Below, piece after piece: positions 20,362 to 43,000 of a stretch of 64,000 bases of DNA. The notes below the pieces were generated by a model. It had not been told where the DNA came from. It saw only the letters and a list, made by a program, of their open reading frames with translations, and ran no database searches. A program made the position numbers and the translations under genes. Origin of the DNA: Candidatus Cloacimonadota bacterium (GTDB lineage: Bacteria; Cloacimonadota; Cloacimonadia; G963667145); assembly GCA_963667145.1 (NCBI GenBank), contig OY762943.1, positions 1,236,251 through 1,300,250 on the forward strand. Reading direction: 5' to 3'. Numbering within the stretch: the first letter of the stretch is position 1; the number at the start of each line of letters is the position of its first letter.

Positions 20362-20370
20362 GAGGTAAGA

Positions 20371-23865
<3,495 letters not shown>

Positions 23866-23874
23866 GTATTATCA

Positions 23875-26322
23875 ATGTATATTGAATTTGATAGTTTGAA
23901 TATTGCTCAAAATATTTTTGCACATAGAAAAGGGGAAAAACCAAAGGAAACTTTGGAAAAACATTCTAATTTAACAAAAAAATATTTAGATTTGTTAATT
24001 CAGAAGAAAAATTTAACTGAAATCCTCGATACTTTGTTTAATTATATTCCTGTAAAAAATGCTTACCTATTAAGGGAGATGTTTTTTAACGCTGTATATC
24101 TTCATGATTTGGGAAAGAACAATTCAGGCTTTCAACGACATAAGATGGGAAATTTAGATTTTGAAGAGACAACAGCTTCTTCTAATCACTCTTATCTTTC
24201 AGCTAAAAAATTTATTAGAATCTTTGAAGAGAAAATTGAAAAAATTGACGATGAATTAGAGAATTATTTATTGCTTTTTGTTTTATATAATTTTGCTTAT
24301 CAAATATCAAAACATCATGGCAGATTAGAATCTTTTGAGAGTTTTATTGAAAAAACAAAAAATAAAGACTTAAAAAATTTTCAGCAAAACTTGCAATATC
24401 TTAAAATCTCTGAATTTGAGTTTTACATTCTAAGCAAATTACTTTTCTCATTATTAGTAAGTTCCGATTATTATGCAACAACAGAATATATGGCTGATTT
24501 GAAAACAGAAAATTTTGGCTTATTTAATATACCATTAAAGGGAAAACTAAATCAAAAATTTAATGATTTCAAAAATTCTTTACCTAAACCTGAAGGAATA
24601 AATATTCTTCGTTCAAAGATGCTAAAAGAAACGGAAGAGGTTTTGGCTGGAAATTTTGATAAAAATATTTTTTATTTGGAAGCTCCAACGGGGAGTGGAA
24701 AAACCATAACTTCTATTAATTTGGCATTAAAATTATTGGAAAAAGATAAAAATTTAAATAAACTTTTTTATATTTTTCCTTTTAATACTTTAGTTGAGCA
24801 AACAAAAAAAGTTTTCGAAAATATTTTTGAAGATTTGCTAAACATTGAAGTTATAAATTCTATCACTCCAATCAAAATACAAAATGATGAGGAATTGGAA
24901 GAAGAAGAAAGTAAATATGAAAAATCGTATTTAAATAGATTGTTTTTTCATAATCCAGTAATTTTAACTACGCATATTGCTTTATTTAAAATTTTATTCG
25001 GACTTTCCAAAGAAGACAATTATCCTCTTTGGCAACTTGCTAATTCTGTGATAATTCTTGATGAAATTCAATCTTACGATAATAAAATCTGGTGGCATAT
25101 GATTGAGTTTTTTCAAAAATATGCTAAAAACCTTAATCTTAAAATTATAATAATGTCGGCAACTTTGCCTAAACTTGATACTTTATTGGAAAATCCGGTT
25201 GGTTTTGTTGATTTGATAAAGAATAGGTCAAATTATTTTGAAAATAGTTATTTTAAAGAAAGGGTGAAACTTGATTTTTCATTATTGAAAAATGAAATTT
25301 TTAAAAAGGATACTGATGATGATCTGCGAAAAGTTAGGATTGAAAAATTATTTTCTGCTTTTGATGAAGAAAAAACTAAGTATCAAAAGTTTCTTTTTGA
25401 ATTTATAAAAAAGAATACGGCTCGAGAGATTTATAATCTTCTAAAAGAAAAATATGAAAGTGAATTTGATATTTATGAATTGACCGGTGACGACAATAAG
25501 GCTTATCGGGAATATGTAATTTCAGAAACGAAAAAGAACAAAAAAATAATTGTTGTTGCTACGCAAGTAATTGAGGCTGGTGTGGACATTGATATGGATA
25601 TTGGTTTTAAAAATATTTCAACTATTGATAGTGAAGAACAATTTCTCGGCAGAATAAATCGTAATTGCCAAAAGAAAAATTCAAAAGCTTATTTTTTTTA
25701 TTTGGATAGTGAACAAGATGTTTATAAGGAAGATAATCGCTTAGAGTTTAATTTGCGAAAAGAAAAATATAAAAATAATTTAATAAATAAAAATTTTCAA
25801 GACTTTTATTCTGAAGTTTTAGACAGAATTTTCAAGAAAGAAAGCGAAATAAAATCCGGCTTGGAAAGTGAATTCGATACTTTTAAAAAATATGTTGGAG
25901 AGCTTAATTATAAGATTATTTCTGATAAAATGACTTTAATTAAATCACAGAATTTTATCATATTTTTCCCCTTCCAAATAGATATTCAAAAATATGAAAT
26001 TGAGGAATTTAAAAATATTGATTCTTCACTATTTGAAAAAGATAAATTAGACGGTGAAAAAATTTGGAATAGATTTAAAAAATTAAATGAAATTAAAAAT
26101 TTTACTCAAAGGGAAATTGAGAAATCTAAAATAAATTCACTGATGCAGTTTTTTATATTCAATATAACAAAGTATGATAGTAAAGAACTTTTTACGGGAA
26201 CCTATGATGAAGAAATCGGTGGAATTTATTATATAAAAGATTATGAAGATTTTATTACAGAAGATTTGAAGTTTAAGCGAAAAGAATTTATTGAAAAATG
26301 CAAAGATAGAAACTTGGAATAG
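23875..26322 (+). CDS. cas3: Cas3 HD-nuclease/helicase fusion
   Basis: HD domain (AH...YLHDLGK...), DEAD/DEAH helicase Walker A APTGSGKT, DEID (IILDEIQSYD), helicase C region VVATQVIEAGVDIDMD. Confidence 0.9.
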   Translation: MYIEFDSLNIAQNIFAHRKGEKPKETLEKHSNLTKKYLDLLIQKKNLTEILDTLFNYIPVKNAYLLREMFFNAVYLHDLGKNNSGFQRHKMGNLDFEETTASSNHSYLSAKKFIRIFEEKIEKIDDELENYLLLFVLYNFAYQISKHHGRLESFESFIEKTKNKDLKNFQQNLQYLKISEFEFYILSKLLFSLLVSSDYYATTEYMADLKTENFGLFNIPLKGKLNQKFNDFKNSLPKPEGINILRSKMLKETEEVLAGNFDKNIFYLEAPTGSGKTITSINLALKLLEKDKNLNKLFYIFPFNTLVEQTKKVFENIFEDLLNIEVINSITPIKIQNDEELEEEESKYEKSYLNRLFFHNPVILTTHIALFKILFGLSKEDNYPLWQLANSVIILDEIQSYDNKIWWHMIEFFQKYAKNLNLKIIIMSATLPKLDTLLENPVGFVDLIKNRSNYFENSYFKERVKLDFSLLKNEIFKKDTDDDLRKVRIEKLFSAFDEEKTKYQKFLFEFIKKNTAREIYNLLKEKYESEFDIYELTGDDNKAYREYVISETKKNKKIIVVATQVIEAGVDIDMDIGFKNISTIDSEEQFLGRINRNCQKKNSKAYFFYLDSEQDVYKEDNRLEFNLRKEKYKNNLINKNFQDFYSEVLDRIFKKESEIKSGLESEFDTFKKYVGELNYKIISDKMTLIKSQNFIIFFPFQIDIQKYEIEEFKNIDSSLFEKDKLDGEKIWNRFKKLNEIKNFTQREIEKSKINSLMQFFIFNITKYDSKELFTGTYDEEIGGIYYIKDYEDFITEDLKFKRKEFIEKCKDRNLE

Positions 26323-26350
26323 ATAAATAAAAGCTAATTTAGGGGAACTT

Positions 26351-26848
26351 ATGGTCAATAACCCAAAAATTACAGCTACCCAAATCAATTACTATTTTGT
26401 GTGTCATCGCGAACTCTGGCTTTTTTCTCATCAGGTGAATATGGAGCAAAATTCAGAATTGGTAGCTTTGGGTAAGCTTTTGCACGAAAATTCTTATAAG
26501 CGGGAAGACAAGGAAGTGCAAATCGGTCCGATTAAAATCGATTTTATAGGTAAGGACAGAGTTATTCACGAGGTAAAGAAAACTCCCTCCATCGAAGAAG
26601 CACACACTTGGCAACTCAAGTATTATTTGTGGTATCTGAAACAATTGGGAGTGGAAAATTTGAAAGGCGAGATAGATTATCCCAAATTGAAAAAACGGAC
26701 GGAAATTACCTTGAGCACAGAAGATGAAGAGCAAATCGGGAAAATATTGCAAGAAATAGAGCAAATTGTAAATTCCCCCGAAATTCCGCAAACCATCAAC
26801 AAATCTCGATGCAAAAAATGTAGCTATTACGAACTTTGTTATATTTAA
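26351..26848 (+). CDS. cas4: Cas4 (RecB-like nuclease with Fe-S cysteines)
   Basis: 165 aa. The N-terminal Cys is in YYFVCHRELW. The C-terminal cluster CKKCSYYELC supplies three more Cys. It includes the RecB-nuclease core. Confidence 0.85.
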   Translation: MVNNPKITATQINYYFVCHRELWLFSHQVNMEQNSELVALGKLLHENSYKREDKEVQIGPIKIDFIGKDRVIHEVKKTPSIEEAHTWQLKYYLWYLKQLGVENLKGEIDYPKLKKRTEITLSTEDEEQIGKILQEIEQIVNSPEIPQTINKSRCKKCSYYELCYI

Positions 26849-26857
26849 GGAGATAAG

Positions 26858-27847
26858 ATGAAGAGAGATTATTTTTCTTTTTCCAATGGAAGTTTCCAAC
26901 GGAAAGATAATACGCTTCTTTATACTAATCTTGAGGGTAAGAAAAAGATAATCCCCATCGAAACCGTCAAAAATTTATACTCATTTGGGGAGACCGATCT
27001 TAATACCAAGCTTTTGAATTTTTTGGCTCAAAATGAAGTTTTTTTGCATATTTTCAATTACTACGGGTTTTATTCGGGAAGTTTTGTCCCCAGAGACAGC
27101 TTACTTTCCGGAGAAGTGATAGTCAAACAAGTCAAAAAATTTACTAAACCATCTTTGCAATTGATTCTTGCCAAAGAGTTAATTTCGGCTACCAGAGATA
27201 ATATGCTCAAAAATTTGTCTTATTATGCCAATAGAGGCAAAAACGATTTGGATGAAATCAAACAAAAAATGGAGAGTTTTGACCTTGAGGAAGCTGACGA
27301 TACTCAGCAATTGATGGGAATTGAGGGCAATATTCGAAAAACTTATTATCAAAGTTTCAATACAATCATCGATAGGGAAATTGATTTTGAAAAGCGAGTT
27401 AAACGTCCCCCTGACAATATGATAAACACTTTGGTCTCTTTTGGAAATATGATGCTTTACACAGCTGTACTTTCGGAAATTTACCGTACGCAACTAAATC
27501 CCACGATTTCTTTTTATCACAAACCTTCTTATCGCAGATACTCTCTGGCATTGGATATTTCGGAATTGTTCAAACCATTTTTGGTGGATAGAATTATCTT
27601 TAAGCTTCTAAACAAAAATATGATTAGCGAGAAAGATTTCAAAAAAGAACTTAATTTTTGCTATATGAAAGAAAAGGCGAGAAAAGTTTTCGTGAAGGAG
27701 TTTGACGAAAAATTGTCTACGACCATCAAGCACAAAAAACTTGGAAGGAACATTTCTTATAGGCATCTTATGCGGTTGGAATGTTATAAATTTGTAAAAG
27801 TTGTTTTGGAACATATTGATTATGAAGCATTTAGGACTTGGTGGTGA
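26858..27847 (+). CDS. cas1: Cas1 integrase
   Basis: 329 aa. It has the conserved Cas1 fold regions (…GIEGNIRKTYYQSF…KRPPDNMINTLVSFGNMMLY…) and sits before cas2. Confidence 0.9.
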   Translation: MKRDYFSFSNGSFQRKDNTLLYTNLEGKKKIIPIETVKNLYSFGETDLNTKLLNFLAQNEVFLHIFNYYGFYSGSFVPRDSLLSGEVIVKQVKKFTKPSLQLILAKELISATRDNMLKNLSYYANRGKNDLDEIKQKMESFDLEEADDTQQLMGIEGNIRKTYYQSFNTIIDREIDFEKRVKRPPDNMINTLVSFGNMMLYTAVLSEIYRTQLNPTISFYHKPSYRRYSLALDISELFKPFLVDRIIFKLLNKNMISEKDFKKELNFCYMKEKARKVFVKEFDEKLSTTIKHKKLGRNISYRHLMRLECYKFVKVVLEHIDYEAFRTWW

Positions 27848-27850
27848 TTT

Positions 27851-28114
27851 ATGTATGTGATAGCTGTTTATGATATTGGCGAAAAAAGAGTTGGCAAAAT
27901 TTTAAAGATTTTTAGAAAATATTTGACGCGAATTCAAAATTCCGTTTTCGAAGGAGAGATTACCAAATCGAAATTTGAAAAGTTGAAGATAGAAGTGTTA
28001 GAAGTGATTGACAAGGGTTATGATAATGTTTTGTACTACAAATTGACTTCCGATCATTATTTGCGTAAAGAACAGTTGGGAGTGCAATTAGACCAGATGA
28101 GCGTCTTCTTGTAA
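27851..28114 (+). CDS. cas2: Cas2
   Basis: 87 aa. MYVIAVYDIGEKRVGKILKIFRKYLTRIQNSVFEGEI is the canonical Cas2 N-terminus. Confidence 0.85.
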   Translation: MYVIAVYDIGEKRVGKILKIFRKYLTRIQNSVFEGEITKSKFEKLKIEVLEVIDKGYDNVLYYKLTSDHYLRKEQLGVQLDQMSVFL

Positions 28115-28310
28115 TTTGTCGATGCTCAAAAATTTGAGAAAAATTATTTGTTTCTTTATAAAATATTTGTAACAATTTGATTATTTCGTTGCAAATCATC
28201 ACGTTGTCGAACTTGGGGGAATTTTACATTATGAGGCATCGACGACAAAATCTTTCGTTATTTTGATATTGTAGCTTATTAAATAAGCATTTGTCTAGAA
28301 AAAGTAACGG
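28115..28310 (+). promoter_or_regulatory. CRISPR leader (AT-rich, between cas2 and the first repeat)
   Basis: 196 bp at about 25% GC, immediately 5' of repeat 1. The repeat orientation (ending ATTGAAAC on the + strand) puts array transcription on the + strand starting here. Confidence 0.55.
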
Positions 28311-31300
28311 ATTTAAATTAGACTACTGTAGAATTGAAACCAAGTTACAATGAGGACGAAATGGATACACTTTTGTATTTAAATTAGACTACTGTAGAAT
28401 TGAAACTTTTGAGACTCTCCCTCCCAAGATAGAAAGATTAGATTTAAATTAGACTACTGTAGAATTGAAACTTACAAATAACCGTAAAAAATAGATAAAA
28501 AACTTTATTTAAATTAGACTACTGTAGAATTGAAACGTAGCATTATTAACATATTTTGTAAATGTTGCCTGTATTTAAATTAGACTACTGTAGAATTGAA
28601 ACTCTGAATAATTATCGCTAAAAATTCCCTCTCGAAATTTAAATTAGACTACTGTAGAATTGAAACAAGTTCGCTGAGTTCCAAGACATACTGAACTTTT
28701 TATTTAAATTAGACTACTGTAGAATTGAAACATATTAAAGGCAGTTTAGCAGATTATTTGCTTCGTATTTAAATTAGACTACTGTAGAATTGAAACGTTA
28801 CATTAAAAGCTGTCCCCCAGTTAATTTTGAGGTATTTAAATTAGACTACTGTAGAATTGAAACTAAACAAATCTTTTTTGATTTTGGTCACCCAACCAAT
28901 TTAAATTAGACTACTGTAGAATTGAAACTGGAAACCGAGCTGTCTGCTTGTGGGACGCTTTCTCCATTTAAATTAGACTACTGTAGAATTGAAACTTATA
29001 TATATCATCGAATAGTAGGCAGGCATATTGTATTTAAATTAGACTACTGTAGAATTGAAACCTCTTTTTGCTTTTTGGCAGGAGTTATCTTGAACGATTT
29101 AAATTAGACTACTGTAGAATTGAAACAGAGGATGTAGTCCGAAATGGAGAAAGCAGAATAAATTTAAATTAGACTACTGTAGAATTGAAACTTTAAAAAT
29201 TCGCCTTTTACTCGGAATGTCTTATTTTTATTTAAATTAGACTACTGTAGAATTGAAACTTTAAAATCTTCCTATATGGAAATTAAACCTCCAGATTTAA
29301 ATTAGACTACTGTAGAATTGAAACTGGTTTTTCTGGCAGTAGTAATGTCAGCTTTGATTATTTAAATTAGACTACTGTAGAATTGAAACAGTATGGAGAT
29401 TTTGCTACACGGAATGAGACGGCATTTAAATTAGACTACTGTAGAATTGAAACCACCCTCAATCTACCAATCACTTCCGGCGACCACTTATTTAAATTAG
29501 ACTACTGTAGAATTGAAACATGTCATTAAGAGTGCTATTAAAAAGAATATTTGAATATTTAAATTAGACTACTGTAGAATTGAAACTTTGTCGGCTTTGT
29601 ATTCGCCTGTTGGTTTTCGGAGCATTTAAATTAGACTACTGTAGAATTGAAACAAAACTCGTCTCTGACTTCTCCAAGGCTCTTGCCTTGATTTAAATTA
29701 GACTACTGTAGAATTGAAACTCTGATAAGCAAAAACTATGCTTACGCACCCTCACATTTAAATTAGACTACTGTAGAATTGAAACATTGTTCTATCAAAA
29801 CAGATTTTAAAATTATTTTTGCATTTAAATTAGACTACTGTAGAATTGAAACTTGAGCGTGTAAGATTTACCACCGCTCAACACCACAATTTAAATTAGA
29901 CTACTGTAGAATTGAAACGCCAGAAGGTGGATATGCCGATGCCCTGAAGATGAATTTAAATTAGACTACTGTAGAATTGAAACAAGGCGAATATACGGAC
30001 GAGAGCTTTGAGGCGATGAAGATTTAAATTAGACTACTGTAGAATTGAAACACATCTTTGAGTCTTTTAAATGCTTTTAAGGCTGATAATTTAAATTAGA
30101 CTACTGTAGAATTGAAACAAATATTTCAACGAAAAGAAAAATAAAGATGTAACAATTTAAATTAGACTACTGTAGAATTGAAACAATAGATTATGCAATA
30201 AATATTACAAGAGGATATTCAAATTTAAATTAGACTACTGTAGAATTGAAACGATAGTGCTTGTTTAATTGTCAGCCCTTTTTTCCTTATTTAAATTAGA
30301 CTACTGTAGAATTGAAACTCTGATAAGCAAAAACTATGCTTACGCACCCTCACATTTAAATTAGACTACTGTAGAATTGAAACATTGTTCTATCAAAACA
30401 GATTTTAAAATTATTTTTGCATTTAAATTAGACTACTGTAGAATTGAAACTTGAGCGTGTAAGATTTACCACCGCTCAACACCACAATTTAAATTAGACT
30501 ACTGTAGAATTGAAACGCCAGAAGGTGGATATGCCGATGCCCTGAAGATGAATTTAAATTAGACTACTGTAGAATTGAAACAAGGCGAATATACGGACGA
30601 GAGCTTTGAGGCGATGAAGATTTAAATTAGACTACTGTAGAATTGAAACACATCTTTGAGTCTTTTAAATGCTTTTAAGGCTGATAATTTAAATTAGACT
30701 ACTGTAGAATTGAAACAAATATTTCAACGAAAAGAAAAATAAAGATGTAACAATTTAAATTAGACTACTGTAGAATTGAAACAATAGATTATGCAATAAA
30801 TATTACAAGAGGATATTCAAATTTAAATTAGACTACTGTAGAATTGAAACGATAGTGCTTGTTTAATTGTCAGCCCTTTTTTCCTTATTTAAATTAGACT
30901 ACTGTAGAATTGAAACTTATATATATCATCGAATAGTAGGCAGGCATATTGGATTTAAATTAGACTACTGTAGAATTGAAACCCTGTTCAAGCATATACT
31001 CGATAAAGTCTGCTAAATTTAAATTAGACTACTGTAGAATTGAAACTTTTGCCCTGCTTAAATTATTATAAGTCAATACAATATTTAAATTAGACTACTG
31101 TAGAATTGAAACCTCGATTAAGCCCACCTGTTCCAGTTCCCGGAGTCCTATTTAAATTAGACTACTGTAGAATTGAAACTTGATTTGTGTCTGAGGCTCA
31201 ATTTTAGGGATTAAATTTAAATTAGACTACTGTAGAATTGAAACCTATAAATTTTGGAATAAACAATTTTAAGATAAAAGATTTAAATTAGACTACTGTA

Positions 31301-31636
31301 GAATTGAAACTGGAGCTAAAAAAAGTTTTTGTCAGCTTAATTCCGTATTTAAATTAGACTACTGTAGAATTGAAACTTTATAAATGGTGTTGTAAAATCC
31401 AAATTTATAAAACAATTTAAATTAGACTACTGTAGAATTGAAACATTCAAATCTGACGATTTGTTATTCCCTAACTCTCGATTTAAATTAGACTACTGTA
31501 GAATTGAAACGTCGGTATTCGTATTATTTGCATATGAATAGTCCGTATTTAAATTAGACTACTGTAGAATTGAAACATAATCAATCCTACAAACTTCCTC
31601 AATCTCTCAAAATTTAAATTAGACTACTGTAGAATT
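28311..31636 (+). CRISPR. CRISPR array, leader-proximal half: 51 repeats, the last truncated by the IS
   Basis: 30-bp repeat ATTTAAATTAGACTACTGTAGAATTGAAAC with a period of about 66 bp and spacers of 34-39 bp. Positions were counted by eye and may be off by a few bp. Confidence 0.95.
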
Positions 31637-32712
31637 GTGGGCGGTATGCAGTAAAAGTATCCACCCTTGTTAATTTTTTCTATGTCTCTCGAATAAAAAT
31701 CTGCGATGATGGGATTTATGTTTATGACCTTATAATTAGGCTTTGAAAAATTTTCTCTCAAAATCTGTTTTGGCGATTTCCCACCTCGTCCTCGGTTGCC
31801 ACGAAAGTGATTAAAATACAGCGTGTAGCAGTGGGTTTTGCACAGAAAATCTTCGCAACTTCCAAAATCCTCAATTCTATAAAACTCATCTTCAATCAAG
31901 CGGTGACAACTCTCAACATCTGAATTAAAAGTCGGACTAGCTTTTGGAATAAGCAAATGCTTCGCACCATTTTTGGCTACCATTTTTTCAAAATATGTAA
32001 CGCCTTTCTTCTTATTAACGTGCGTGAATTCCGTGCCATTGTCCGTCTGAAAAGCGACTTTGGAAATATCGACTCCACATTTTGCCAAATTTTTGCACAA
32101 ATAATCGATGTAAATCCCTGTGTTAACACTCGTTTTTTCGTAGCAAAATCCAATGAACTGCATCCCCGATTTATAGTCGCGGGCAGTTATTTGATACTTC
32201 GGGAAATTTTTGTATTTAATCCCCTCAAACAGCTCAGGTAAGTCGGTCAGGTACTTAATATCAACCTGAAATTTCTCGTAAATTTTCGCTTTTTTTCGCA
32301 TCAAGCTCAAGTCTTTTCTGCGTTGGTATCTTCGCTTTTTTTTCTTAATCAAACCTTCGTCGCACAGCTTTTTGTGAACAGTGGAATGCGAGCAATTCAG
32401 CTGAAGATGGTCAATAATTCGTCGTGAACCCCACAGGTTTTTGGATTTATTTCGGCACGTTACAATCTCATCAACCACTTCAGGATTCATGCGATTCGGG
32501 AAAAATTGATTTTTTCGGGACTTGTTATTCAACCCCTCCTCTCCCTTTAAATTATAAGCTTTTACCCATTTTCGCACAGTTTTTCTGGTGGTGTTGAATT
32601 CACGTGCAGCCTCCGAAATAGAAGTTTCTTTGGCGTACTTTACCAACTTTTTTCGGTAATAAACCTTGTACTTTTTATCCATAAAATTCTTATTGCTTTC
32701 GTAATTATTCAT
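31624..32712 (-). CDS. DDE transposase (rve integrase core with N-terminal HTH; IS481-like)
   Basis: 362 aa. HTH (SISEAAREFNTTRKTVRKWVKAY). Integrase core with DNGTEF and ...IEDEF.... The ORF has no internal stop: the last two codons and the TAG stop are supplied by the flanking CRISPR repeat. Confidence 0.8.
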   Translation of the reverse strand: MNNYESNKNFMDKKYKVYYRKKLVKYAKETSISEAAREFNTTRKTVRKWVKAYNLKGEEGLNNKSRKNQFFPNRMNPEVVDEIVTCRNKSKNLWGSRRIIDHLQLNCSHSTVHKKLCDEGLIKKKKRRYQRRKDLSLMRKKAKIYEKFQVDIKYLTDLPELFEGIKYKNFPKYQITARDYKSGMQFIGFCYEKTSVNTGIYIDYLCKNLAKCGVDISKVAFQTDNGTEFTHVNKKKGVTYFEKMVAKNGAKHLLIPKASPTFNSDVESCHRLIEDEFYRIEDFGSCEDFLCKTHCYTLYFNHFRGNRGRGGKSPKQILRENFSKPNYKVININPIIADFYSRDIEKINKGGYFYCIPPTILQ

Positions 32713-32857
32713 AGTGGTCAGATTGAGCTTTCACGAGCTGATTTGACCATTTTTTTCACAATTTACGTGAAAGTTCTAAGCAATCTCCCCATTTTTTTAT
32801 AAACTTTCCTGTTACAAATCTTCAATTTAGGGTGGATACTTTTAGTGTGAACTTTCC
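31637..32857 (-). mobile_element. IS481-family-like insertion sequence (~1.22 kb) inserted inside a CRISPR repeat
   Basis: Imperfect terminal inverted repeats TGGGCGGTATGCAGTAAAAGTATCCACCC / GGGTGGATACTTTTAGTGTGAACTTTCCA share a perfect 16-bp core AAAAGTATCCACCC. A 15-bp direct duplication ACTACTGTAGAATTG of repeat sequence flanks both ends. A single DDE transposase ORF lies inside. Confidence 0.8.
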
Positions 32858-32858
32858 A

Positions 32859-35800
32859 ACTACTGTAGAATTGAAACTTGACTGCACTTTCGACAACTCT
32901 ATCCTCGTTCTCATATTTAAATTAGACTACTGTAGAATTGAAACTGACATCACATTTATTAGGTTTAATTTTGGTCTATATTTAAATTAGACTACTGTAG
33001 AATTGAAACTCGTGCAGGTACGCTCTGATGACGCTGTCAGCAACTATTTAAATTAGACTACTGTAGAATTGAAACAAAGATAAATTAGAGGGTTTATATT
33101 GTGAGCTGGAATTTAAATTAGACTACTGTAGAATTGAAACAGATATGGCGTGAGCCTTTCTGACGCACAATCTGAAATTTAAATTAGACTACTGTAGAAT
33201 TGAAACATGGAGATTAGGCTTGTGTCCGTAAACTCGAAGTATTTAAATTAGACTACTGTAGAATTGAAACTCGAACAAACCGCCTTTGTTGTTCACTCCA
33301 AGTAAATTTAAATTAGACTACTGTAGAATTGAAACTTGGTAAATTGTTGTAATTAAAAAATAGTGGCAAAAAATTTAAGTTAGACTACTGTAGAATTGAA
33401 ACAATTTTCTTTGCCTTATTCGTCAATATTTTCAAGGATATTTAAATTAGACTACTGTAGAATTGAAACACTTTTGTTGAATTATTCAAACCCTTGTCTT
33501 TATTATATTTAAATTAGACTACTGTAGAATTGAAACTTACAAGCTCCTTGAAATACTTCTGAATTGCATAACAATTTAAATTAGACTACTGTAGAATTGA
33601 AACTTTGTAGGTGCAAGTAGTTCGGCTCTTTCTTTGTCCGATTTAAATTAGACTACTGTAGAATTGAAACATGTTATTACCGTTACAAAGATGATGGAGG
33701 GAAAATACAATTTAAATTAGACTACTGTAGAATTGAAACTCGGCTGGCATATTGGTTGTATAGTCGATTGACAAAATTTAAATTAGACTACTGTAGAATT
33801 GAAACAAGGATTTGTAAAGATGGGTTGCTCTTATCCATTGGATTTAAATTAGACTACTGTAGAATTGAAACGGAGTAAAGTAAGTTTTGTCCCGACACGA
33901 CCGTGATAATTTAAATTAGACTACTGTAGAATTGAAACTTGTGTGTATTCGTTCTTTTTTTGTCTCGTCAGCATTTAAATTAGACTACTGTAGAATTGAA
34001 ACAAAATTTAAGAGGAGTATCATCGGTTAAACTGTTACCATTTAAATTAGACTACTGTAGAATTGAAACTAACCCGAATATTGAGAGCGTTTGCCTCGGC
34101 TGGGAATTTAAATTAGACTACTGTAGAATTGAAACACGAAATTCTCAATTTGGTTTTGAATTGACTCCAAATTTAAATTAGACTACTGTAGAATTGAAAC
34201 CTGCTTTTTGCTGATTGTTGTTTAGCTCCATCCAATTTAAATTAGACTACTGTAGAATTGAAACATCACAATGAAGAATGTAAACGCTTTTGTCTTATTG
34301 CAATTTAAATTAGACTACTGTAGAATTGAAACTTAATAGGCTCAAAAACAACTGCATTTCCTGAAGAATTTAAATTAGACTACTGTAGAATTGAAACTTT
34401 GCAGTGTTAACGATGTACATATCAAAAGAAGCCAATTTAAATTAGACTACTGTAGAATTGAAACACAAAGAGGGAGTGGCACTTACATTTTTGTGGATTT
34501 TATTTAAATTAGACTACTGTAGAATTGAAACAGGAGCTTTATGATAATGCGATGGAAACAGCAAAGCATTTAAATTAGACTACTGTAGAATTGAAACAAA
34601 GAGTTTAGTCAACCTCTACCTGCTATAAAAGTATTTAAATTAGACTACTGTAGAATTGAAACCTCAACAATGAATGCGACAAACCCATATATGCCAAAAT
34701 TTAAATTAGACTACTGTAGAATTGAAACTTTCGGCGGTATGAGCTTTATTCAAATGATTTACCCAATTTAAATTAGACTACTGTAGAATTGAAACCCCTA
34801 AAATAGCGGACTTGGTAGAAGAAAAAACAGAAATTTAAATTAGACTACTGTAGAATTGAAACATGCTTGAAAAAATTTATTTGATGTTTGGTGGGAAAAT
34901 TTAAATTAGACTACTGTAGAATTGAAACATTTTAAGGCTTGAAAATGTGGGGATTTTTGTCAAATTTAAATTAGACTACTGTAGAATTGAAACGATATTT
35001 AGTAGGATTGATTCTTTATATAAGTTTGAATTTAAATTAGACTACTGTAGAATTGAAACTTTGCAGTGTTAACGATGTACATATCAAAAGAAGCCAATTT
35101 AAATTAGACTACTGTAGAATTGAAACTAAAATCTGTCGTATGCCCCCTCTTCAACTCCCATTATTTAAATTAGACTACTGTAGAATTGAAACACAAAGAG
35201 GGAGTGGCACTTACATTTTTGTGGATTTTATTTAAATTAGACTACTGTAGAATTGAAACCTTGGTATTTACAAAGTGGAGGTCAAAGGAAGTTGCAGAAT
35301 TTAAATTAGACTACTGTAGAATTGAAACGGGTACTTGTCATTCTTGTAGCTCACAAAATACCGAGATTTAAATTAGACTACTGTAGAATTGAAACGTGCT
35401 TTACCTCCAAGTACATACTCCGCATGTTCCAATTTAAATTAGACTACTGTAGAATTGAAACAATTTAACCTCAGAGACTTTCACATTCAGCAAATAGGAT
35501 TTAAATTAGACTACTGTAGAATTGAAACCCGAAATAAACAATGCTGGTGTTGTTATTCAAAGTGAATTTAAATTAGACTACTGTAGAATTGAAACAGGAG
35601 CTTTATGATAATGCGATGGAAACAGCAAAGCATTTAAATTAGACTACTGTAGAATTGAAACATAGCATCCTTAATCTTTGCCAAATTACCATCAAGGATT
35701 TAAATTAGACTACTGTAGAATTGAAACAATTTAACCTCAGAGACTTTCACATTCAGCAAATAGGATTTAAATTAGACTACTGTAGAATTGAAGCCCGAAA

Positions 35801-36125
35801 TAAACAATGCTGGTGTTGTTATTCAAAGTGAATTTAAATTAGACTACTGTAGAATTGAAACAGGAGCTTTATGATAATGCGATGGAAACAGCAAAGCATT
35901 TAAATTAGACTACTGTAGAATTGAAACAGAAAATTTTGGAGTTTTTTTCATTTTTGGAAAGAGATTTAAATTAGACTACTGTAGAATTGAAACAAGCTAT
36001 TCTTGGGGGAAATAAAATGAGTAAATGAATATTTAAATTAGACTACTGTAGAATTGAAACATTTTAAGGCTTGAAAATGTGGGGATTTTTGTCAAATTTA
36101 AATTAGACTACTGTAGAATTGAAAC
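32859..36125 (+). CRISPR. CRISPR array, distal half (about 50 repeats), resuming with the 3' part of the split repeat
   Basis: It has the same repeat as the proximal half. It includes the variant repeats ATTTAAGTTAG... (about 33372) and ...GAATTGAAGC (about 35790). Confidence 0.95.
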
Positions 36126-36181
36126 TATGAGAGATTTATAAAAAAATACGACCGTCCAGAATTTGATAACGTCTCAAAGTT

Positions 36182-36671
36182 GGTGTAAATTTAAAAAGTA
36201 AAAAATGGTCACTTTTGCTCTTATGTTACAAAAAGTTAACACGAGGAGGCAAAAATGACCAACAACCATGATAAAAAACTTGAAGAATTTACAAATTTTG
36301 TCAAGGATGAAACGAGTAATAATTTAACAAAAATTTTGAAAACAGCTGTACATCAACTGTTTCAAGCAGAATTAGAATCATATTTGAATGCTAAAAAATA
36401 TGAGAGAAATCAGGAGCGAACAACTTATAGAAGTGGATTTAGAACTAGAAAACTTGCCACTAGTTTAGACGATGAGAAAAAATCATTTAGGATTTTTTCA
36501 TAGTTGTGAAAGTTGTAATCTTCTAATTGGAGCAATTTTAGTTCAGCAAAATGAGGATTGGCTTGAAGGACTAACCTATATGAGTATAATAAAAAAAGAG
36601 CCAACTTACGGAAAAAACTCAAGTTAGCAGAAAATTTTTAGAAATAATTAAAACATGAGAGAATTTACACC
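36182..36671 (+). mobile_element. Putative internally deleted IS256-family remnant bounded by 10-bp inverted repeats GGTGTAAATT / AATTTACACC
   Basis: The terminal inverted 10-mers are at 36182-36191 and 36662-36671. It encloses an 82-codon ORF resembling the N-terminus of IS256-family transposases. Confidence 0.35.
36255..36503 (+). pseudogene. Truncated IS256-family (mutator-type) transposase, N-terminal fragment only
   Basis: LTKILKTAVHQLFQAELESYLNAKKYERNQERTTYRSGFRTRKL parallels the IS256 Tnp N-terminus (...NQLMENQRTEYIQAKEYERTENRQSQRNGYYER...). It stops after 82 aa and the catalytic DDE region is absent. Confidence 0.6.
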
Positions 36672-36696
36672 ACAAATGAGACTTGACTCCGATTTC

Positions 36697-36726
36697 ATTT
36701 AAATTAGACTACTGTAGAATTGAAAC
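36697..36726 (+). repeat. Orphan CRISPR repeat 570 bp beyond the array end
   Basis: An exact 30-bp copy of the array repeat, separated from the last array repeat by the IS256-like remnant. Confidence 0.9.
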
Positions 36727-37063: not shown

Positions 37064-40000
37064 TTAGTTAGAGAAAGCGGGTTTGTTTGCAAGTAACCAA
37101 GCATTTGCATTTGTGTCAAACCCAGGAGGTGTAGGGAGGAACTGAGTCCATGTATTCCAGTTAATAAGATTTTGGTTGAAAATAGAAGCCCCGTTGAACA
37201 TATATTCCATATTGTTTACTTTACTCAAATTCCAGTCACTAATATCTTGATCGAAACCGCGAGCACCAGTAAACATCCAGCTCATATTTTCTACATTAGC
37301 AGTTTTTTCTTTCCAGTTGCCAATATTACCGTTGAATGCAGTGTTTCCGTAAAAGAGGCTACTCATGTCTTTTACATTGATTACATTCCATCCGCCGATG
37401 TCTTGATTGAAAGGAGTTTCTCTGAACATGGCTGCCATGGTGGTCACTTTGCCTACATCCCAGCTACTTATATCTTGGTTGAAGGAACTTGCTTGATAGA
37501 ACATATAACTCATGTCATTTACATTGCTAGTTTTTGTTCCCCAGTTACCTATGCTGTCGTTAAAAGCGGTTGCTCCGAAGAACATACCACACATAGTGGT
37601 ATCGTTGCTTACATCCCAGTTACTAATTTTACCATTAAAAGAGGATGCAAATTTAAACATACCGTCCATCGCTTTTACTTTGCTCACGTTCCAATTGTTA
37701 AGGTTTTGATTGAATGCTTTACAACATTTTATGGTATCATCACCGCCGAACATATAACCCATGTCTTCTACGTTGCTAACATCCCAGCCACCAATTTCTT
37801 GGTTGAATGTGGTGTTTTCAAAGAACATATATCTCATATTTTTTACACTGCTCACTGTCCAGCCAGTAATATCTGCGTTGAAGGATTGAGCTCTGCAGAA
37901 CATACTGGTCATATCTGTTACCTTGCTCACGTCCCAGCCACTAATGTCTCCATTAAAGGCTTTGGCATCTGTGAACATATTACTCATATTTGTTACGCTA
38001 TCCACTTTCCAGTTGCTGAGGTCTTGATTGAATAGAGTATCGCCATAGAACATAAAGCTCATGTCTTTTACTCTGCTTACATCCCAGTTGCTGATATTTT
38101 GGTCGAAGTTACCATTATCCTTAAACAATCTGCTCATATCCGTAATCTCGGAGGTGTTGACTTTTTCTACATTTTCGCCGTTTGCTATCTTTGTTCTGAG
38201 ATCTTCTATGGTTATAGCAGGTATTGTCATCCTTATAGTGAAGTTGTTTCCAGTGCTGTCTCCGTTGGTGGTGTTCACAGCTATTGAACTAAGTGAAGTT
38301 GCTGTTGTTGCATCATAGTCAGTTGGCACGGTGAGTGCTACCGTATATGTTCCCGCCAAAAGTCCGCTGAAGGAGTATATGCCACGGTCGCCAGTAGTTG
38401 TGGTTTTATTGGAACTCCCGCTCAGAGTTATAGTTGCCCCCTTATAGGTAGCTCCAGTAACTGTGCTGACTTTGCCTGAGATGGAATAAGTTGGTGTCAG
38501 ATTGAAGTTGTTGTTTGTGCTGTCGGCGTTGCTGACGGTGATAGATTTGGTGGTATCGTCAGCGATGTAACTATTAGGGATAGTTAGGGTTACGTTGTAT
38601 GAGCCGTTTAGCACATTGAAAGCATAATCGCCGTTGGCATCTGTGGTGACAGTGTCGTTGAAATCAACAATCGGAGAAGTATTAGAAGTTCCGCTCAATC
38701 TTAAGGTGTCGCTTCCGTGTCCTGTCACTTTTCCAGAGACGGTATGATATTTCCATATGGCGAAATTTTTCCATGATATGTTGGAAGAAGTTAAACTGAC
38801 AGATATAGTTGTTGTGGGGGCATAATATCCACTTGGAGTGGTGAGCCTTACTTCGTATGAACCAGTAGTTGTTATTCCGCTGAATTTGTATGACCCGTCG
38901 CTTGCTGTGGTTGTGGTGGCAACGGAATCTTTTGAAACTCCTGGAACTACAAAATACAACTTCAACGTAGCATTTTCATATTTTTCTCCAGTAGCTCCGT
39001 TAGACACTTCTCCTGAGATAAAGTAAGTTTGTGTTAGCGTGAAGTCGTTGCCAGTGCTGTCAGCTTCGTTTATGTCTATGTCTAATGTTGTGTCGTTGGC
39101 AATCCAATCTTCAGGAATATCTATGGTTACATGGTATTTTCCACTTACCAATCCGTCGAAGGAGTAGTTTCCACTGACCCCTGTGAGAGTGGCAGAAGAG
39201 TCTCCGCTCAAGGTCAAAGTGACACCTCCATAGTTAAGGATAGATCCCTTGATGGAATAGGTCTTTTGTATAGTGAAGTTTTGCCCCGTGACGTTGTCAT
39301 TGCTAATCGTGATGGAGAGCGTTGTGTCTTTCGTGAAGTAACCAGTCGGGTTAGTGAGTTTGACTGTGTAATCTCCTGTTACTAATCCGCTGAAGGAGTA
39401 TGAGCCGTCGCCTATCGAGGTGGTAGAGGCGATGGAGTCTGCACTGGAGTTATACAAAGTCAGATATGCACCATCTGTGTAGTCGGAGGTGTTACTTCCG
39501 CTCAGGATGTTGACCTTGCCCAAGATGGAATAAGTTGGAATTAGCGTGAAGTCGTTGCCAGTGCTATCGGCATTATCTATGGGGATAGATTTGGTGGTAT
39601 CGACAGCGATGTAGTTCTCGGGGATAGTCAGAGTTAGGTTATAGGTTCCGTTTATTGCTTTGAAAGAGTAGTTCCCATTTTCATCCGTAACTGTTGTATC
39701 AGCGAAGTCTGTGAGTATAGTAGTAGTTCCGCTCAATCTTACGGTGTCGTTTCCATGTCCCGTAACTTTGCCAGAGACGGTGTATTTTTTCCATAAGGTA
39801 AAGTTGATTGTTTTGTCATTAGAATAGATTATGGTTGTGGGAGCTGAGTCGGTAACAAAATAGTCGCTTGGAGTAGAGAGTGTTATTGTGTATGTGTTGC
39901 CAGTTGATGACCCTAATACTCCACTGAATTTGTATTCACCGTTGATGTCTGTGGTGGCAGTGGCGATTTGATTTCCGCCAAAGCTCAAGGTTAAGGTAGC

Positions 40001-43000
40001 GTTTGCAATTTTTTCATCGTTATTCGCTGGAGCAGTAACAGTTCCCGAGATATTGTATGTCTGAGTCAGATTGAAGTTGTTGTTTGTGCTGTCGGCGTTG
40101 TTGACGGTGATAGATTTTGTGGTATCGTCAGCGATGTAGTTCTCGGGGATAGTCAGAGTTAGGTCATATGTTCCGTTTATTGCTTTGAAGGAGTAGTTGC
40201 CACTGCCATCTGTAACTGTTGTATCAGCAAAGAATGTGCCTGCATTAGTATTTCCGCTCAATCTTAAGGTGTCGTTGCTGTGTCCTGTGACCTTACCAGA
40301 GACGGTGTGATATTCCCAAATGGTGAAGTCTTGATTCGGTATATCACCACTCAGTGAGGAGACGTTTATGGTAGTGTCGGCGGAATAGTAATTGCTTGGC
40401 GTCGAGAGAGTTACTGTGTAGTTTCCTGCCACTAATCCGCTGAAAAAGTATGCACCATTCGTCGTTGGAATTGTTTTGTTCGCCGTCAAAGAGCCACCGC
40501 TTATCGTCACGTTGGCACTTCCCGTGAAGTTGCTACCGTTGAGCTTCACATTCCCCGAGATGGAATAAATCGGAGTCAGATAGAAGTCTTTTGTTACATT
40601 GCCTCCGCTTATCGTTATTGTCGCCGTGGTGTCGTCAGCGATGTAGTTCTCGGGGATAGTCAGAGTTAGGTCATATGTTCCGTTTATTGCTTTGAAGGAG
40701 TAGTTGCCACTGCCATCTGTTACTGTTGTATCAGCAAAGAATGTGCCTGCATTAGTATTTCCGCTCAATCTTATGGTGTCGCTTCCGTGTCCTGAGACCT
40801 TACCAGAGACGGTGTGGTATTCCCAAATGGTGAAGTCTTGATTCGGTATATCACCACTCAGTGAGGAGACGTTTATGGTAGTGTCGGCGGAATAGTAATT
40901 GCTTGGCGTCGAGAGAGTTACTGTGTAGTTTCCTGCCACTAATCCGCTGAAAAAGTATGCACCATTCGTCGTTGGAATTGTTTTGTTCGTCGTCAAAGAG
41001 CCACCACTTATCGTCACATCGGCACTTCCAGTGAAGTTGCTACCGTCGAGCTTCACATTCCCTGAGATGGTGTAAGTCGGGGTTAGATTGAAGTTCTTGG
41101 CGACATCGCTTCCGCTTATAGTTATTGTCTCGATGGTATCGTCGGCAATGTAGTTCTCGGGGATAGTCAGAGTTAGGTCATATGTTCCGTTTATTGCTTT
41201 GAAGGAGTAGTTGCCACTGCCATCTGTTGCTGTTGTATCAGCAAAGAATGTGCCTGCATTAGTATTTCCGCTCAATCTTAAGGTGTCGTTGCTGTGTCCT
41301 GTGACCTTACCAGAGACGGTGTGATATTCCCAAATGGTGAAGTCTTGATTTGGTATATTGCCACTCAGCAAGGAGACGTTTATGGTAGTATTGGCGGAAT
41401 AGTAACCGTTTGGTGTTGAGAGAGTTACTATGTAATTGCCTGCTTCCAATCCGCTGAAGGAGTATGAGCCGTCGCTTGTCGAGGTGATAGAGGCGATGGA
41501 GTCTGCACTGGAGTTATACAAAGTCAGAGTTGCACCATTGTATGTTCCGCTCGGCGAGATGTTGACTTTACCCGAGATGGAATAAACTGGAGTTAGCTTA
41601 AAGTTTTTGGGAATAGGGCCCGTCACAGTGTATGTTTCTGTTGTGTCATCGGCAATGTAATTATCAGGGATTGTTAGAGTTATGGTATATGTGCTGTCTT
41701 TTATTAGCCCTGCGAATGTGTATGTTCCGCCGTTCCCATTTGGAGTTGCTTGATGCACTTGGTTGTTTGCGTAGTCGGTTAGAGTCACGGTAACAGTTTC
41801 ACTGCTGTATCCAGTGATTGTTCCACCTATGGAATAAGTCGGAGCCAGCGTGAAGTCTTGATCTGGAGTGTTTGCACTCAGTGAGGAGATGTTTATGGTA
41901 GTGTTGGCACAATAGTAACCACTTGGTGTTGAGAGAGTTACGGTGTAATTTCCTGTCGTTAATCCGCTGAAGGAGTATGCACCATTCGTTGTTGTAATTG
42001 TTTTGTTCACCGTTAGAGAGCCACCGCTTATCGTCACATCTGCACTTCCCGTGAAGTTGCTTCCGTTGAGTTTAATATTCCCTGAGATGGTGTAAGTCGG
42101 AGTCAGATTGAAGTCTTTGGTTATATTGCCTCCGCTTATCGTTATTGTCTCGGTAGTATCGTCAGCAATGTATGTACTGGGGATAGTTAGCGTTAGAGTA
42201 TAGTTTCCGTCTATTGCATTGAAGGAATAGTTGCCACTGCCATCTGTAACTGTTGTGTCAGCGAAGACTGTGTTTGCATTAGTATTTCCGCTCAATCTTA
42301 AGGTGTCGTTGCTGTGCCCTGTGACCTTGCCAGAGACGGTGTGGTATTCCCAAATGGTGAAATTTTGCCCCGTGATGTTGGCATTGCTGATGGTAATGGA
42401 GAGAGTTGTGTCTTTTGAGAAGTATCCGCTCGGGTTAGTGAGCTTCACTGTGTAGTTCCCTGCCACTAATCCGATGAAGGAGTATGAGCCGTCGCTTGTC
42501 GAGGTGGTAGAGGCGATGGAGTTTGCACTGGAGTTATACAAAGTCAAAGTTGCACCGTTATTATATGATGCCCCGCTCGGCGAGATGTTGACAGCACCCG
42601 AGACAGTGTATGTTTTTTCCGTGATAGTGAAGTCGTTCCCCGTGCTGTCGGCATTGCTTAGTGTTACGGATTTTGTTGTAGTTGTGGCTGTGTAGTTGTT
42701 AGGAACTGTGAGTTTCACCGTGTAAGTGCCTGCCTCAATTCCTGCGAACGAATATGAACCATTGGCATCGGTAGTATCGCTCGACAAAGCTGTGGAGGAG
42801 GAATCGAAAAGAGTTAAAGTAGCATTTTGGTATTTGCTTCCTGTTGATGTTGTTACGTTTCCAGAAATTGTGTATGTTACTACAGTAATGGTAATGTCGT
42901 TGCCAGTAGTGTTGTTATTCTCCATCTTAACCGTGATGGTCTCAGTTTTGTCTTCTGGAAGTAAAACGGTTATGGTATAGTCTCCATTTTGGGTCACTGT

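Follow-up and report, generated by a model that had tools for sequence, protein, structure and literature searches.

An IS481-like element inserted beside a promoter-like hexamer splits a long type I-B CRISPR array

The window analysed here, a 64,000-nucleotide stretch of a Candidatus Cloacimonadota genome, contains a long type I-B CRISPR array that is split by an insertion sequence (IS). The split is very probably the outcome of a simple, hexamer-directed transposition of an intact, autonomous IS481-like element into repeat 51. The element appears to have landed at this repeat because the spacer that follows it, spacer 51, begins with TTGACT, and not because CRISPR repeats are targeted as such.

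The CRISPR locus and the element that divides it

The array spans 28311-36125 and, by enumeration in the window, consists of 100 copies of the 30-mer repeat ATTTAAATTAGACTACTGTAGAATTGAAAC, of which 97 are identical, two carry one mismatch and one is split by the IS. This leaves 50 leader-side spacers and 49 distal ones, the latter count matching the approximate figure of an earlier sequence-only reading. A 101st repeat stands alone at 36697-36726. The cas operon beside the array has the order cas6-cas8b-cas7-cas5-cas3-cas4-cas1-cas2, which places the system in type I-B, and the leader carries a promoter-like TTTACA-17-CAAAAT (28223-28251). No match was found for the 583-aa ORF in the cas8b position among Pfam and NCBIfam profiles, or for the repeat among Rfam CRISPR-DR families. 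The main features of the locus, assigned from Pfam and NCBIfam matches for the operon and from sequence and repeat enumeration for the rest, are as follows.

19564-28114, + strand: type I-B cas operon
19564-20361, + strand: cas6
20371-22122, + strand: 583-aa ORF in the cas8b position, named from position only
22119-23063, + strand: cas7
23050-23865, + strand: cas5b (TIGR02592, 141.7 bits, above the cut-off of 97)
23875-26322, + strand: cas3
26351-26848, + strand: cas4
26858-27847, + strand: cas1
27851-28114, + strand: cas2
28115-28310, + strand: leader, from cas2 to repeat 1
28311-31637, + strand: leader-proximal array half (repeats and spacers 1-50, plus the first 26 positions of repeat 51)
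32878-36125, + strand: leader-distal array half (spacers 51-99 and repeats 52-100)
36171-36682: IS256-family deletion derivative, following repeat 100 and preceding the lone repeat 101

Type I-B repeats end in an 8-nt 5'-handle sequence of the ATTGAAAC type on the transcribed strand, and the + strand repeat here terminates in ATTGAAAC. This repeat end, together with the co-directional cas operon and the position of the leader, sets the orientation of the array, and relative to all three the transposase lies on the minus strand, antisense to the array as first proposed. The IS256-family derivative, a separate element, is recognized by inverted repeats at 36171-36191 and 36662-36682 and by an 82-aa Transposase_mut fragment (36255-36503, Pfam); a full-length relative is present in L163.

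The element within repeat 51 is, as the sequence-only reading had claimed, a genuine IS, with coordinates that are here slightly corrected; its transposase is of the DDE type. Its boundaries follow from end-to-end alignment: a sister genome carries an IS of 72% identity, about 35 copies of which align from base 1 to base 1221. The flanks were also read correctly, the left one ending at repeat position 26 and the right one resuming at position 12, and the features of the insertion are listed below.

31612-31637, + strand: split repeat 51, left part (positions 1-26)
31623-31637: left copy of the target-site duplication (TSD), ACTACTGTAGAATTG, repeat positions 12-26
31624-32712, - strand: transposase ORF, 362 aa, DDE residues D151, D224 and E267
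31638-32858, - strand: IS481-like insertion sequence, 1,221 bp, ends TGG...CCA
31638-31667: terminal inverted repeat at the transposase 3' end, inside the coding sequence, its core encoding the conserved GGYFY motif
32829-32858: terminal inverted repeat at the transposase 5' end, with a promoter-like TTCACA-16-TAAATT (minus strand, 32851 to 32824)
32859-32873: right TSD copy, ACTACTGTAGAATTG
32859-32877, + strand: split repeat 51, right part (positions 12-30)
32878-32883, + strand: TTGACT hexamer with which spacer 51 (32878-32914) opens, 4 bp past the TSD; putative target determinant

The two TSD copies are perfect and made of repeat sequence, as had been noted, and their length of 15 bp is the norm for the clade. 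The inverted repeats are imperfect over about 30 bp, matching at 23 of 30 positions around a perfect 16-bp core, TAAAAGTATCCACCCT. Within this core, the 15-mer TAAAAGTATCCACCC occurs exactly only at the two IS ends in the window, where the chance expectation for matches with up to two mismatches is 0.14, and the IS itself is present once in the window.

The assembly is of the metagenome type, repeats and ISs are classic sites of misassembly, and IS-IS recombination has cost several copies in the sister genome their TSDs, so the junctions could in principle be an assembly artefact or mark a recombination that fused two arrays. Excising the IS with one TSD copy nevertheless regains exactly one repeat, and both the TSD length and the hexamer offset follow the rule of the clade (see below), which is not expected of a chimera. 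An identical protein, including its C-terminal TILQ tail, has moreover been deposited publicly as part of a 1.54-Mb contig. Assembly errors are unlikely given an exact 15-bp duplication typical of the clade, and artefact and array fusion taken together are an extremely improbable account of the junctions.

A transposase gene that runs off its element

The transposase carries the Pfam domains HTH_28, HTH_32 and rve_3, and its catalytic residues are invariant across 121 aligned sequences. Its best NCBIfam match is the IS481 model (NF033577; E 8.6e-43, 146.9 bits over model positions 2-282 of 284), at a score under the curated cut-off of 224; IS3 is the second-best family, with 68 bits. The closest annotated relatives on plasmids are IS481-like ISKpn27 elements, at only 27% identity. 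Members of the ISfinder family IS481 are about 950-1300 bp long. The element shares with the family a length of about 1.2 kb, a single ORF without programmed frameshift, an N-terminal HTH, the DDE triad in an rve-type core, and TG...CA ends. It differs in its exact termini, TGGGCGG and TGGAAAG, of which only the terminal dinucleotides fit, whereas IS481 inverted repeats begin with TGT (10.1101/2022.12.17.520857), which gives elements with TGT...ACA ends. IS481 elements make TSDs of 2 to 15 bp, with "not a few" members at about 15 bp (PMC10045372), a range that includes the window copy. TSDs of 15-17 bp also occur in the ISTde1 subgroup of the IS1202 family (10.1101/2022.12.17.520857); the ISAba32 subgroup of that family is unlike the present element in its xrs/dif target, its TSD of 5-6 bp and its different transposases. 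Judged by these profile matches, the assignment to a deep branch that is IS481-like as its best match holds.

The transposase ORF has no stop codon of its own. As had been recognized, it reads ...CIPP-TILQ-TAG, with its final 14 nt in the flanking repeat, namely two bases of the Thr codon, the codons for ILQ, and the stop TAG. All paralogous proteins are common up to ...GGYFYCIPP and then differ, with a first tail codon that always starts with A. Among the nine paralogues of this genome cluster, six have tails of 7 aa, and tails of exactly this length, the modal one across the clade, occur in 35 of 104 cluster representatives (34-96% identity). Both the 15-bp TSD and the open-ended ORF are clade-wide traits rather than peculiarities of the window copy.

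Flank-supplied stop codons have been described before. IS870 and ISMt1 have ORFs without an internal stop, to which a CTAG target gives TAG, and the transposase stop codons of IS1239, IS1547 and IS1110 likewise lie in the flank (PMC13630536). The present clade resembles IS870 in having an ORF that is open at its end and a preferred target that gives the stop. It differs in family and target, the stop here being the TGA within a TTGACA hexamer 19 bp past the element end, and in the conservation of the arrangement across the clade down to about 35% identity. The window copy is inserted in the minority orientation and hence uses the TAG of the repeat instead.

Target choice in the clade and at repeat 51

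The sister genome provides the clearest view of how these elements choose their sites. Its roughly 35 copies, in 1.56 Mb, are nearly all intergenic, and their TSDs (23 perfect ones of 15 bp and two of 14 bp) are unrelated AT-rich 15-mers. An exact TTGACA lies 4 bp from the TSD in 19 of 35 copies, against a background of 3e-4 per position, and the position matrix at this offset over 23 sites is T18 T17 G16 A16 C18 A16. The orientation ratio at hexamer sites is about 17 to 3, and the three reversed sites among the 23 keep the same spacing. In 14 of the 35 copies, the TGA of TTGACA serves as the transposase stop. Tandem copies exactly one TSD apart indicate repeated strikes on one hexamer.

The same geometry extends to other members of the clade. 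TTGACA is found at this spacing in relatives of 42-51% identity, P0068 (44% identity) is likewise flanked by a perfect 15-bp TSD, and a 96%-identical copy of the window IS in a related strain sits at TSD-TATC-TTGACG, upstream of a gene. For distant relatives on short-read metagenome contigs, left flanks were mismatched and TSDs were not confirmed. In this clade, the element appears to cut with a 15-bp stagger, giving the 15-bp TSD, and to set this segment at a distance of 4 bp from a TTGACA-like hexamer, in most cases with the transposase 3' end towards the hexamer. The ORF crosses the terminal inverted repeat and leaves the element, and in the usual orientation T-TGA-CA supplies an in-frame stop after a 7-aa tail.

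The targeted hexamers are probably -35 promoter boxes, since in the sister genome they lie 40-80 nt upstream of Shine-Dalgarno (SD) sequences and start codons, in some cases with a tRNA gene downstream instead. Targeted sites have A at +23 in 14 of 19 cases and T at +27 in 12 of 19. Their TATAAT -10 score is, however, not significantly better than that of control TTGACA sites (p = 0.11), and hence their identity as promoters is likely but unproven. Such a habit would keep the IS out of genes. A comparable one is known from TnGBS, ISLre2 and ISKra4, which insert in one orientation a fixed short distance upstream of sigma-A -35 boxes, read as gene avoidance (PMC3942029). Those elements belong to the unrelated Mutator-like (p-MULT) superfamily, whereas the transposase here is rve/IS481-like; the box lies 15-17 bp from their ends, as opposed to 19 bp here (15-bp TSD plus 4), and a target-supplied stop codon is not described for them. 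The present element thus works like this promoter-upstream-targeting group without being a member of it. No description of hexamer-directed targeting or of an ORF running off the element was found in the searchable IS481 literature, and the rule appears undescribed for IS481-like elements.

The window insertion follows this rule. Its site reads TSD, AAAC, TTGACT, the same geometry as the N15-N4-TTGACA of the clade, with a hexamer that matches at five of six positions. If the start of spacer 51 was read as the target, then the stagger would fall on repeat positions 12-26, as observed. The insertion in the array accordingly looks like a by-product of promoter-hexamer targeting.

An alternative is that the position within the array is random and the TTGACT at the canonical offset a coincidence. 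Matches of five of six hexamer positions at the right offset, on either side, occur at 2.3% of array positions, and a recognizable hexamer is absent from about 15-40% of sister-genome copies, both of which leave some room for chance. The TTGAC core, by contrast, stands at the right offset at just 0.14% of the positions available in the reconstructed array and yet is present in most insertions of the clade, so that targeting is favoured by a likelihood ratio of several hundred; coincidence is therefore improbable. Counting against hexamer targeting are the imperfect hexamer of the window site, its minority orientation (3 of 23 in the sister genome) and three perfect TTGACA/TGTCAA sites in other parts of the array that carry no insertion.

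The sequence-only reading had instead taken any of the roughly 100 identical repeats to be a potential target, which would mean that the element homes to the repeats themselves, for instance to their CTACTGTAG palindrome, and that other strains are hit elsewhere. The entire TSD is indeed repeat sequence, each repeat contains TTGAAA (a match at five of six hexamer positions), and the PhiAP1.1 prophage and Tn7-like elements target repeats or arrays (PMC11837452). Homing would lead us to expect recurrent insertion in repeats or arrays, but only one copy is found among 101 repeats, and in the sister genome the repeat is absent from all 32 loci that contain the 35 or so copies, so that no copy there has entered a CRISPR repeat. 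The TILQ tail, expected from insertion in the same register and orientation, is absent from the other eight paralogues of this genome cluster, and the TSDs elsewhere are unrelated 15-mers. With TTGAAA as the determinant, the TSD would cover repeat positions 5-19 rather than 12-26, and no stable hairpin was found in repeat RNA or DNA. The determinant in the clade is a TTGACA-like hexamer, and since spacer 51 is the only one in the array to begin with TTGAC, the any-repeat idea is not supported; repeat homing is highly unlikely.

Consequences for the distal spacers

With hexamer-directed insertion as the preferred reading, the array would remain physically whole, with no spacer lost and the presumed Cas6 cleavage position kept in both repeat halves. 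Between the leader promoter and spacers 51-99 there would now lie 1.2 kb of IS sequence, untranslated and in antisense orientation. No intrinsic terminator was predicted on either IS strand, the + strand prediction covering 31638-32858, and transposase transcripts lacking a terminator can extend antisense into spacers 50, 49 and beyond.

Mobile elements that interrupt CRISPR loci are known, including IS6110 in the DR locus of M. tuberculosis. IS insertions have been reported in cas genes and CRISPR loci (PMC10359306), and insertion of the PhiAP1.1 prophage in a repeat silences the downstream spacers and leaves the adjacent spacer unprocessed (PMC11837452). The present case is like these in that the locus is interrupted, and unlike them in that they disrupt cas genes or home to arrays, whereas cas is intact here. 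The 49 distal spacers may plausibly be silenced, and a substantial reduction of distal crRNAs has about an even chance.

Alternatively, the IS may be silent for immunity. Transcription from the leader might read through it, or spacer 51 might contain a cryptic promoter that the IS recognized and left intact, and distal crRNAs would still be produced. The lack of a predicted + strand terminator would permit the former. A promoter-like TTGACT-16-TATCCT just downstream of the IS (32878-32905), which shares the 16-nt spacer and the nAnnnT -10 pattern with targeted sites, could provide the latter, and spacer-internal promoters are documented (PMC7665894). This match is weak (9 of 12), however; untranslated array transcripts are terminated by Rho (PMC7665894), convergent transposase transcription is expected, and the prophage precedent points to silencing. 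A silent IS is thus a serious possibility, if somewhat short of an even one. The question of distal expression would be moot if only the first few percent of spacers are functional, as in some long arrays (10.64898/2026.07.09.737519). More speculatively, the clade may target promoters by convergence with the Mutator-like TnGBS/ISLre2 elements, recognizing -35 hexamers, or the RNA polymerase holoenzyme bound to them, and may have evolved to use the TGA in TTGACA as its stop. In that case, the IS beside spacer 51 would mark a functional cryptic promoter within the array, and transcription of spacers 52-99 would be independent of the leader despite the IS; we regard this extended proposal as rather doubtful.

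The case amounts to a natural test of polarity: in a type I-B array of great length, a 1.2-kb antisense IS without a terminator separates two sets of spacers. Beyond this array, the clade is large and mostly unannotated, occurs in Cloacimonadota and in other anaerobe metagenomes, and seems to choose positions 19 bp upstream of TTGACA. The hexamer rule lets insertion sites be predicted and transposase annotation be corrected, since the variable C-termini are encoded by the flanks. Promoter-upstream targeting was earlier known from Mutator-like elements, and its presence in a second, unrelated lineage would suggest a general safe-haven strategy in compact genomes.

The split CRISPR array and the element within it

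On the + strand of the window, a complete type I-B cas operon precedes a leader and a CRISPR array of 100 repeats, of which 97 are identical, two have one mismatch, and one, repeat 51, is split by an IS. A cas operon running in the same direction, the leader's location, and the ATTGAAAC end of the repeat, which we take to be the type I-B 8-nt handle, all place crRNA transcription on the + strand. A scan of viral contigs for protospacers and a PAM as an orientation check, using 24-mers of spacers 1, 2, and 51 as well as the repeat, gave 0 matches. No Rfam family, CRISPR-DR or other RNA, was found in 28100-33100, and inspection of the leader by eye revealed no convincing boxA-like element. A search for self-targeting, in which the spacers were compared with the IS, the remaining window, and all loci, returned only chance matches of 15-19 nt.

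Features of the locus (all cas genes belong to the type I-B operon)
19564-20361, + strand: cas6
20371-22122, + strand: ORF in the cas8b position
22119-23063, + strand: cas7
23050-23865, + strand: cas5b
23875-26322, + strand: cas3
26351-26848, + strand: cas4
26858-27847, + strand: cas1
27851-28114, + strand: cas2
Between cas2 and the array, + strand: leader, 196 bp
28311-36125, + strand: CRISPR array, 30-bp repeat ATTTAAATTAGACTACTGTAGAATTGAAAC
31612-31637: left part of repeat 51, repeat positions 1-26
31623-31637 and 32859-32873: 15-bp target-site duplication (TSD) ACTACTGTAGAATTG
31638-32858: IS, 1,221 bp of foreign DNA
31624-32712, - strand: transposase ORF, 362 aa, the sole ORF of the IS
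32859-32877: right part of repeat 51, repeat positions 12-30
36171-36191 and 36662-36682: inverted repeats of an IS256-family derivative
36255-36503: 82-aa N-terminal Transposase_mut fragment of that derivative
36697-36726: solitary repeat 101

The anatomy proposed in the sequence-only reading, an IS inside a CRISPR repeat flanked by a 15-bp duplication, is present: deletion of the insert and one TSD copy restores one perfect repeat. The element, the only copy of this IS in the window, ends in TG...CA, and its inverted repeats are identical at 23/30 positions; their core 15-mer, TAAAAGTATCCACCC, has exact matches in the window only at these two sites. The transposase combines N-terminal HTH_28 and HTH_32 domains with an rve_3 core. 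Its top NCBIfam model is IS481 (E 8.6e-43), with near-full model coverage and a score of 146.9 bits that does not reach the curated cut-off of 224, and IS3 is a distant second; the closest annotated plasmid relatives are IS481-like ISKpn27 elements, at 27% identity. Since TSD, ends, and ORF are all in place and residues D151, D224, and E267 do not vary across an alignment with 120 homologs, this copy looks intact and autonomous. Among metagenome contigs, a scan for the inverted-repeat 15-mer produced 120 matches, mostly chance, with weak transposase similarity only in two loci (L141 and L063), and a scan for a repeat 26-mer, which would reveal the empty site, produced 0.

The inverted-repeat core GGGTGGATACTTTTA (31638-31667 and homologs) lies inside the coding sequence, where it encodes the conserved C-terminal motif GGYFY. 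The same bases would thus be constrained throughout the clade both by the predicted transposase-binding site and by the C-terminus of the protein.

The array itself contains segmental duplications, including a nine-spacer block (~598 bp) in tandem at 29756-30353 and 30354-30951, and the spacer at 28996-29031 reappears at 30917-30952 with one mismatch. Several spacers in the distal half are present two or three times (for example, a three-spacer block at 35462-35660 and 35728-35926), leaving ~83 of the 99 spacers unique. These duplicated blocks point to frequent repeat-repeat recombination. Beyond repeat 100, the 571 bp preceding the lone perfect repeat 101 (region 36126-36726) contain a 512-bp deletion derivative of an IS256-family element, for which no clear TSD was seen; the 59-nt remainder exceeds one spacer. 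Very large ORFs on the - strand lie at both sides of the region, at 5431-10503 (1,690 aa, with tandem repeats of 339 bp at 8015-9060 and 81 bp at 9361-9539) and 37064-43756 (2,230 aa, with a 75-bp repeat at 37822-37996), and probably encode repetitive surface proteins.

An exact look-up of Cas2 in Logan short-read assemblies (SRR34447523 and SRR34447543-46) recovered contigs with an identical protein from five samples (L164-L168), the longer of which also have the cas operon in the same order, indicating that those runs contain this I-B locus or one very like it. Each of these contigs breaks off precisely where repeat 1 ends, 226 nt past cas2.

Boundaries and target geometry in related elements

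The protein database has a 90%-identity cluster of nine proteins, one of which, P0125, is identical to the window transposase; a single 1.54-Mb contig encodes eight of the nine. All nine have ...GGYFYCIPP in common, followed by tails unrelated to one another that begin, without exception, with I, N, S, T, or R, amino acids with codons beginning in A. It follows that the IS ends in ...CCGCCCA and that its ORF always enters the flank. This bears out the earlier description of a transposase ORF without its own stop; the ORF lies on the - strand, antisense to the array. The sister genome OZ223280.1, a 1.556-Mb Candidatus Cloacimonadales MAG, harbors an IS 72% identical to the window element, in ~35 full-length copies that align with it over bases 1-1221. 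Their TSDs are a perfect 15 bp in 23 copies, 14 bp in two, and 15 bp with a single mismatch in one, and the remaining copies have swapped flanks, as is typical of IS-IS recombination. The clade as a whole shares the element boundaries, a TSD of 15 bp, and an ORF without a stop; published TSDs of IS481 elements span 2 to 15 bp, a sizeable share of the members lying close to 15 bp (PMC10045372). In distant relatives on short metagenome contigs, TSDs were mismatched, which chimeric flanks around ISs present in many copies would probably explain, and a clean 15-bp TSD was found only for P0068.

Aligning the empty sites reconstructed from the sister genome shows a TTGACA hexamer that begins, on the side facing the transposase 3' end, exactly 4 bp past the TSD; its column counts over 23 sites are T18, T17, G16, A16, C18, and A16. 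The exact hexamer occupies this position in 19/35 copies, and TTGACG and TAGACA in one each, set against a background TTGACA frequency of 3e-4 per position. Three more sites have the reverse complement (TGTCAA or AGTCAA) at mirror-image spacing on the opposite side, which argues that the motif is part of the target and not of the element. At the 4-bp distance, the transposase reading frame meets the TGA of T-TGA-CA, and in 14 sister copies this TGA is the stop codon, giving a 7-aa tail. Such tails recur in 6/9 paralogs of the window's cluster and, at exactly 7 aa, in 35/104 cluster representatives (34-96% identity), the runner-up length accounting for eight.

The same spacing is found well beyond the sister genome, with TTGACA for P0039 (42% identity), P0017 (51%), and P0022 (46%), and with TTGAAA for P0068 (44%), alongside its perfect 15-bp TSD; P0035 and P0003 have degenerate hexamers. 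In a related strain, an IS of the window's type, truncated and 96% identical, lies at TSD-TATC-TTGACG directly upstream of a gene (L163).

Locus L163 (ENA ERZ21831251 ctg12618l, 1374-3486) comes from a strain ~96% identical to window positions 11506-13637, and differs from the window between the IS nest and an ABC transporter gene. A full-length IS256-family element (402-aa transposase; the same element as the window's derivative) sits inside the IS481-like copy, fragments of which flank it in opposite orientations.

Several sister loci show further rearrangement. Tandem IS copies lie one exact TSD copy apart at L005, L008, L020, and L023, and 14 bp apart at L012, implying that one hexamer was hit more than once and that target immunity is absent. 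Flanks are reciprocally swapped between L022 and L024, indicating an inversion between two IS copies, and at L007, where two copies are ~1.8 kb apart, the 15-mer left of the first reappears right of the second.

The targeted hexamers are likely promoters. The reconstructed sister sites are intergenic or at the extreme end of an ORF in 21/23 cases, and most hexamers have a Shine-Dalgarno (SD) sequence and start codon 40-80 nt downstream on the same strand, with one preceding a tRNA gene. Column +23 is A in 14/19 sites and column +27 is T in 12/19, consistent with a 16-nt spacer followed by an nAnnnT -10 element. At 16-18-nt spacing, however, the best TATAAT match does not score significantly above that of control TTGACA sites (p = 0.11), leaving these two columns and the downstream SD sequences and start codons as the only support for promoter identity.

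The choice of repeat 51 and its possible effect on the array

On the + strand of the window, the order is IS, TSD, AAAC (the last four bases of the repeat), and TTGACT, with which spacer 51 begins at 32878. The canonical N15-N4-hexamer geometry is kept, the hexamer matching at 5/6 positions, and the element has the minority orientation, in which the transposase 5' end faces the hexamer. Among the 99 spacers, only spacer 51 starts with TTGAC, and over the reconstructed array a TTGAC core at the proper offset occurs at 0.14% of possible insertion positions (2.3% for any 5/6 match). The repeat's own TTGAAA can be ruled out as the determinant, as it predicts a TSD at repeat positions 5-19. Most likely, then, the site was selected through spacer 51, the repeat being merely where the 15-bp stagger fell.

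This runs counter to the sequence-only reading, in which any of the ~100 repeats was a potential target. Besides the TTGAC start peculiar to spacer 51, that view is opposed by the lack of a CRISPR repeat in the sister-genome IS loci, of a TILQ tail in other paralogs of the window transposase, and of a significant repeat hairpin, the repeat folding at -1.3 kcal/mol (z = -0.1), with no meaningful structure as a target or as a Cas6 signal.

No spacers were lost to the insertion. Assuming that Cas6 cuts 8 nt from the 3' end of the repeat, the cleavage position is kept in both partial repeats. The left copy is without its last 4 nt and the right copy without its first 11 nt, which may affect how crRNAs 50 and 51 mature. 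Spacers 51-99 are preceded by 1.2 kb of untranslated antisense IS, within which no intrinsic terminator was predicted on the + strand. Rho is known to terminate array transcripts that lack antitermination (PMC7665894), and a prophage inserted in a repeat silenced downstream spacers (PMC11837452). The earlier suggestion was that half of the immune memory may be silenced; we give substantial polarity on spacers 51-99 roughly even chances. The insertion left the TTGACT hexamer intact, and the weak promoter-like site TTGACT-16-TATCCT could start a transcript just ahead of repeat 52. A further promoter-like site lies inside the inverted repeat of the transposase gene (32851 to 32824), and, as the gene has no terminator, its transcripts may continue antisense into spacer 50, spacer 49, and those before them. 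The distal half may in any case be of little importance, given that effective spacers were confined to the first ~4% in at least one array of 121 (10.64898/2026.07.09.737519).

Relation to known targeting systems

IS insertion within a CRISPR locus is a known type of event (PMC10359306). The hexamer targeting described here functionally resembles that of the Mutator-like elements TnGBS, ISLre2, and ISKra4, which insert in fixed orientation 15-17 bp upstream of sigma-A -35 boxes (PMC3942029), and likewise that of the xrs-targeting ISAba32 subgroup of IS1202. Stop codons supplied by the target or flank are known from IS870, ISMt1, IS1239, IS1547, and IS1110 (PMC13630536). For IS481-like elements, no description of hexamer targeting combined with a borrowed stop was found in the searchable literature, taken without ISfinder. 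What the present case adds is a targeting rule for a poorly described IS481-like clade, one that accounts for the site in repeat 51 and is probably new for the IS481 family.
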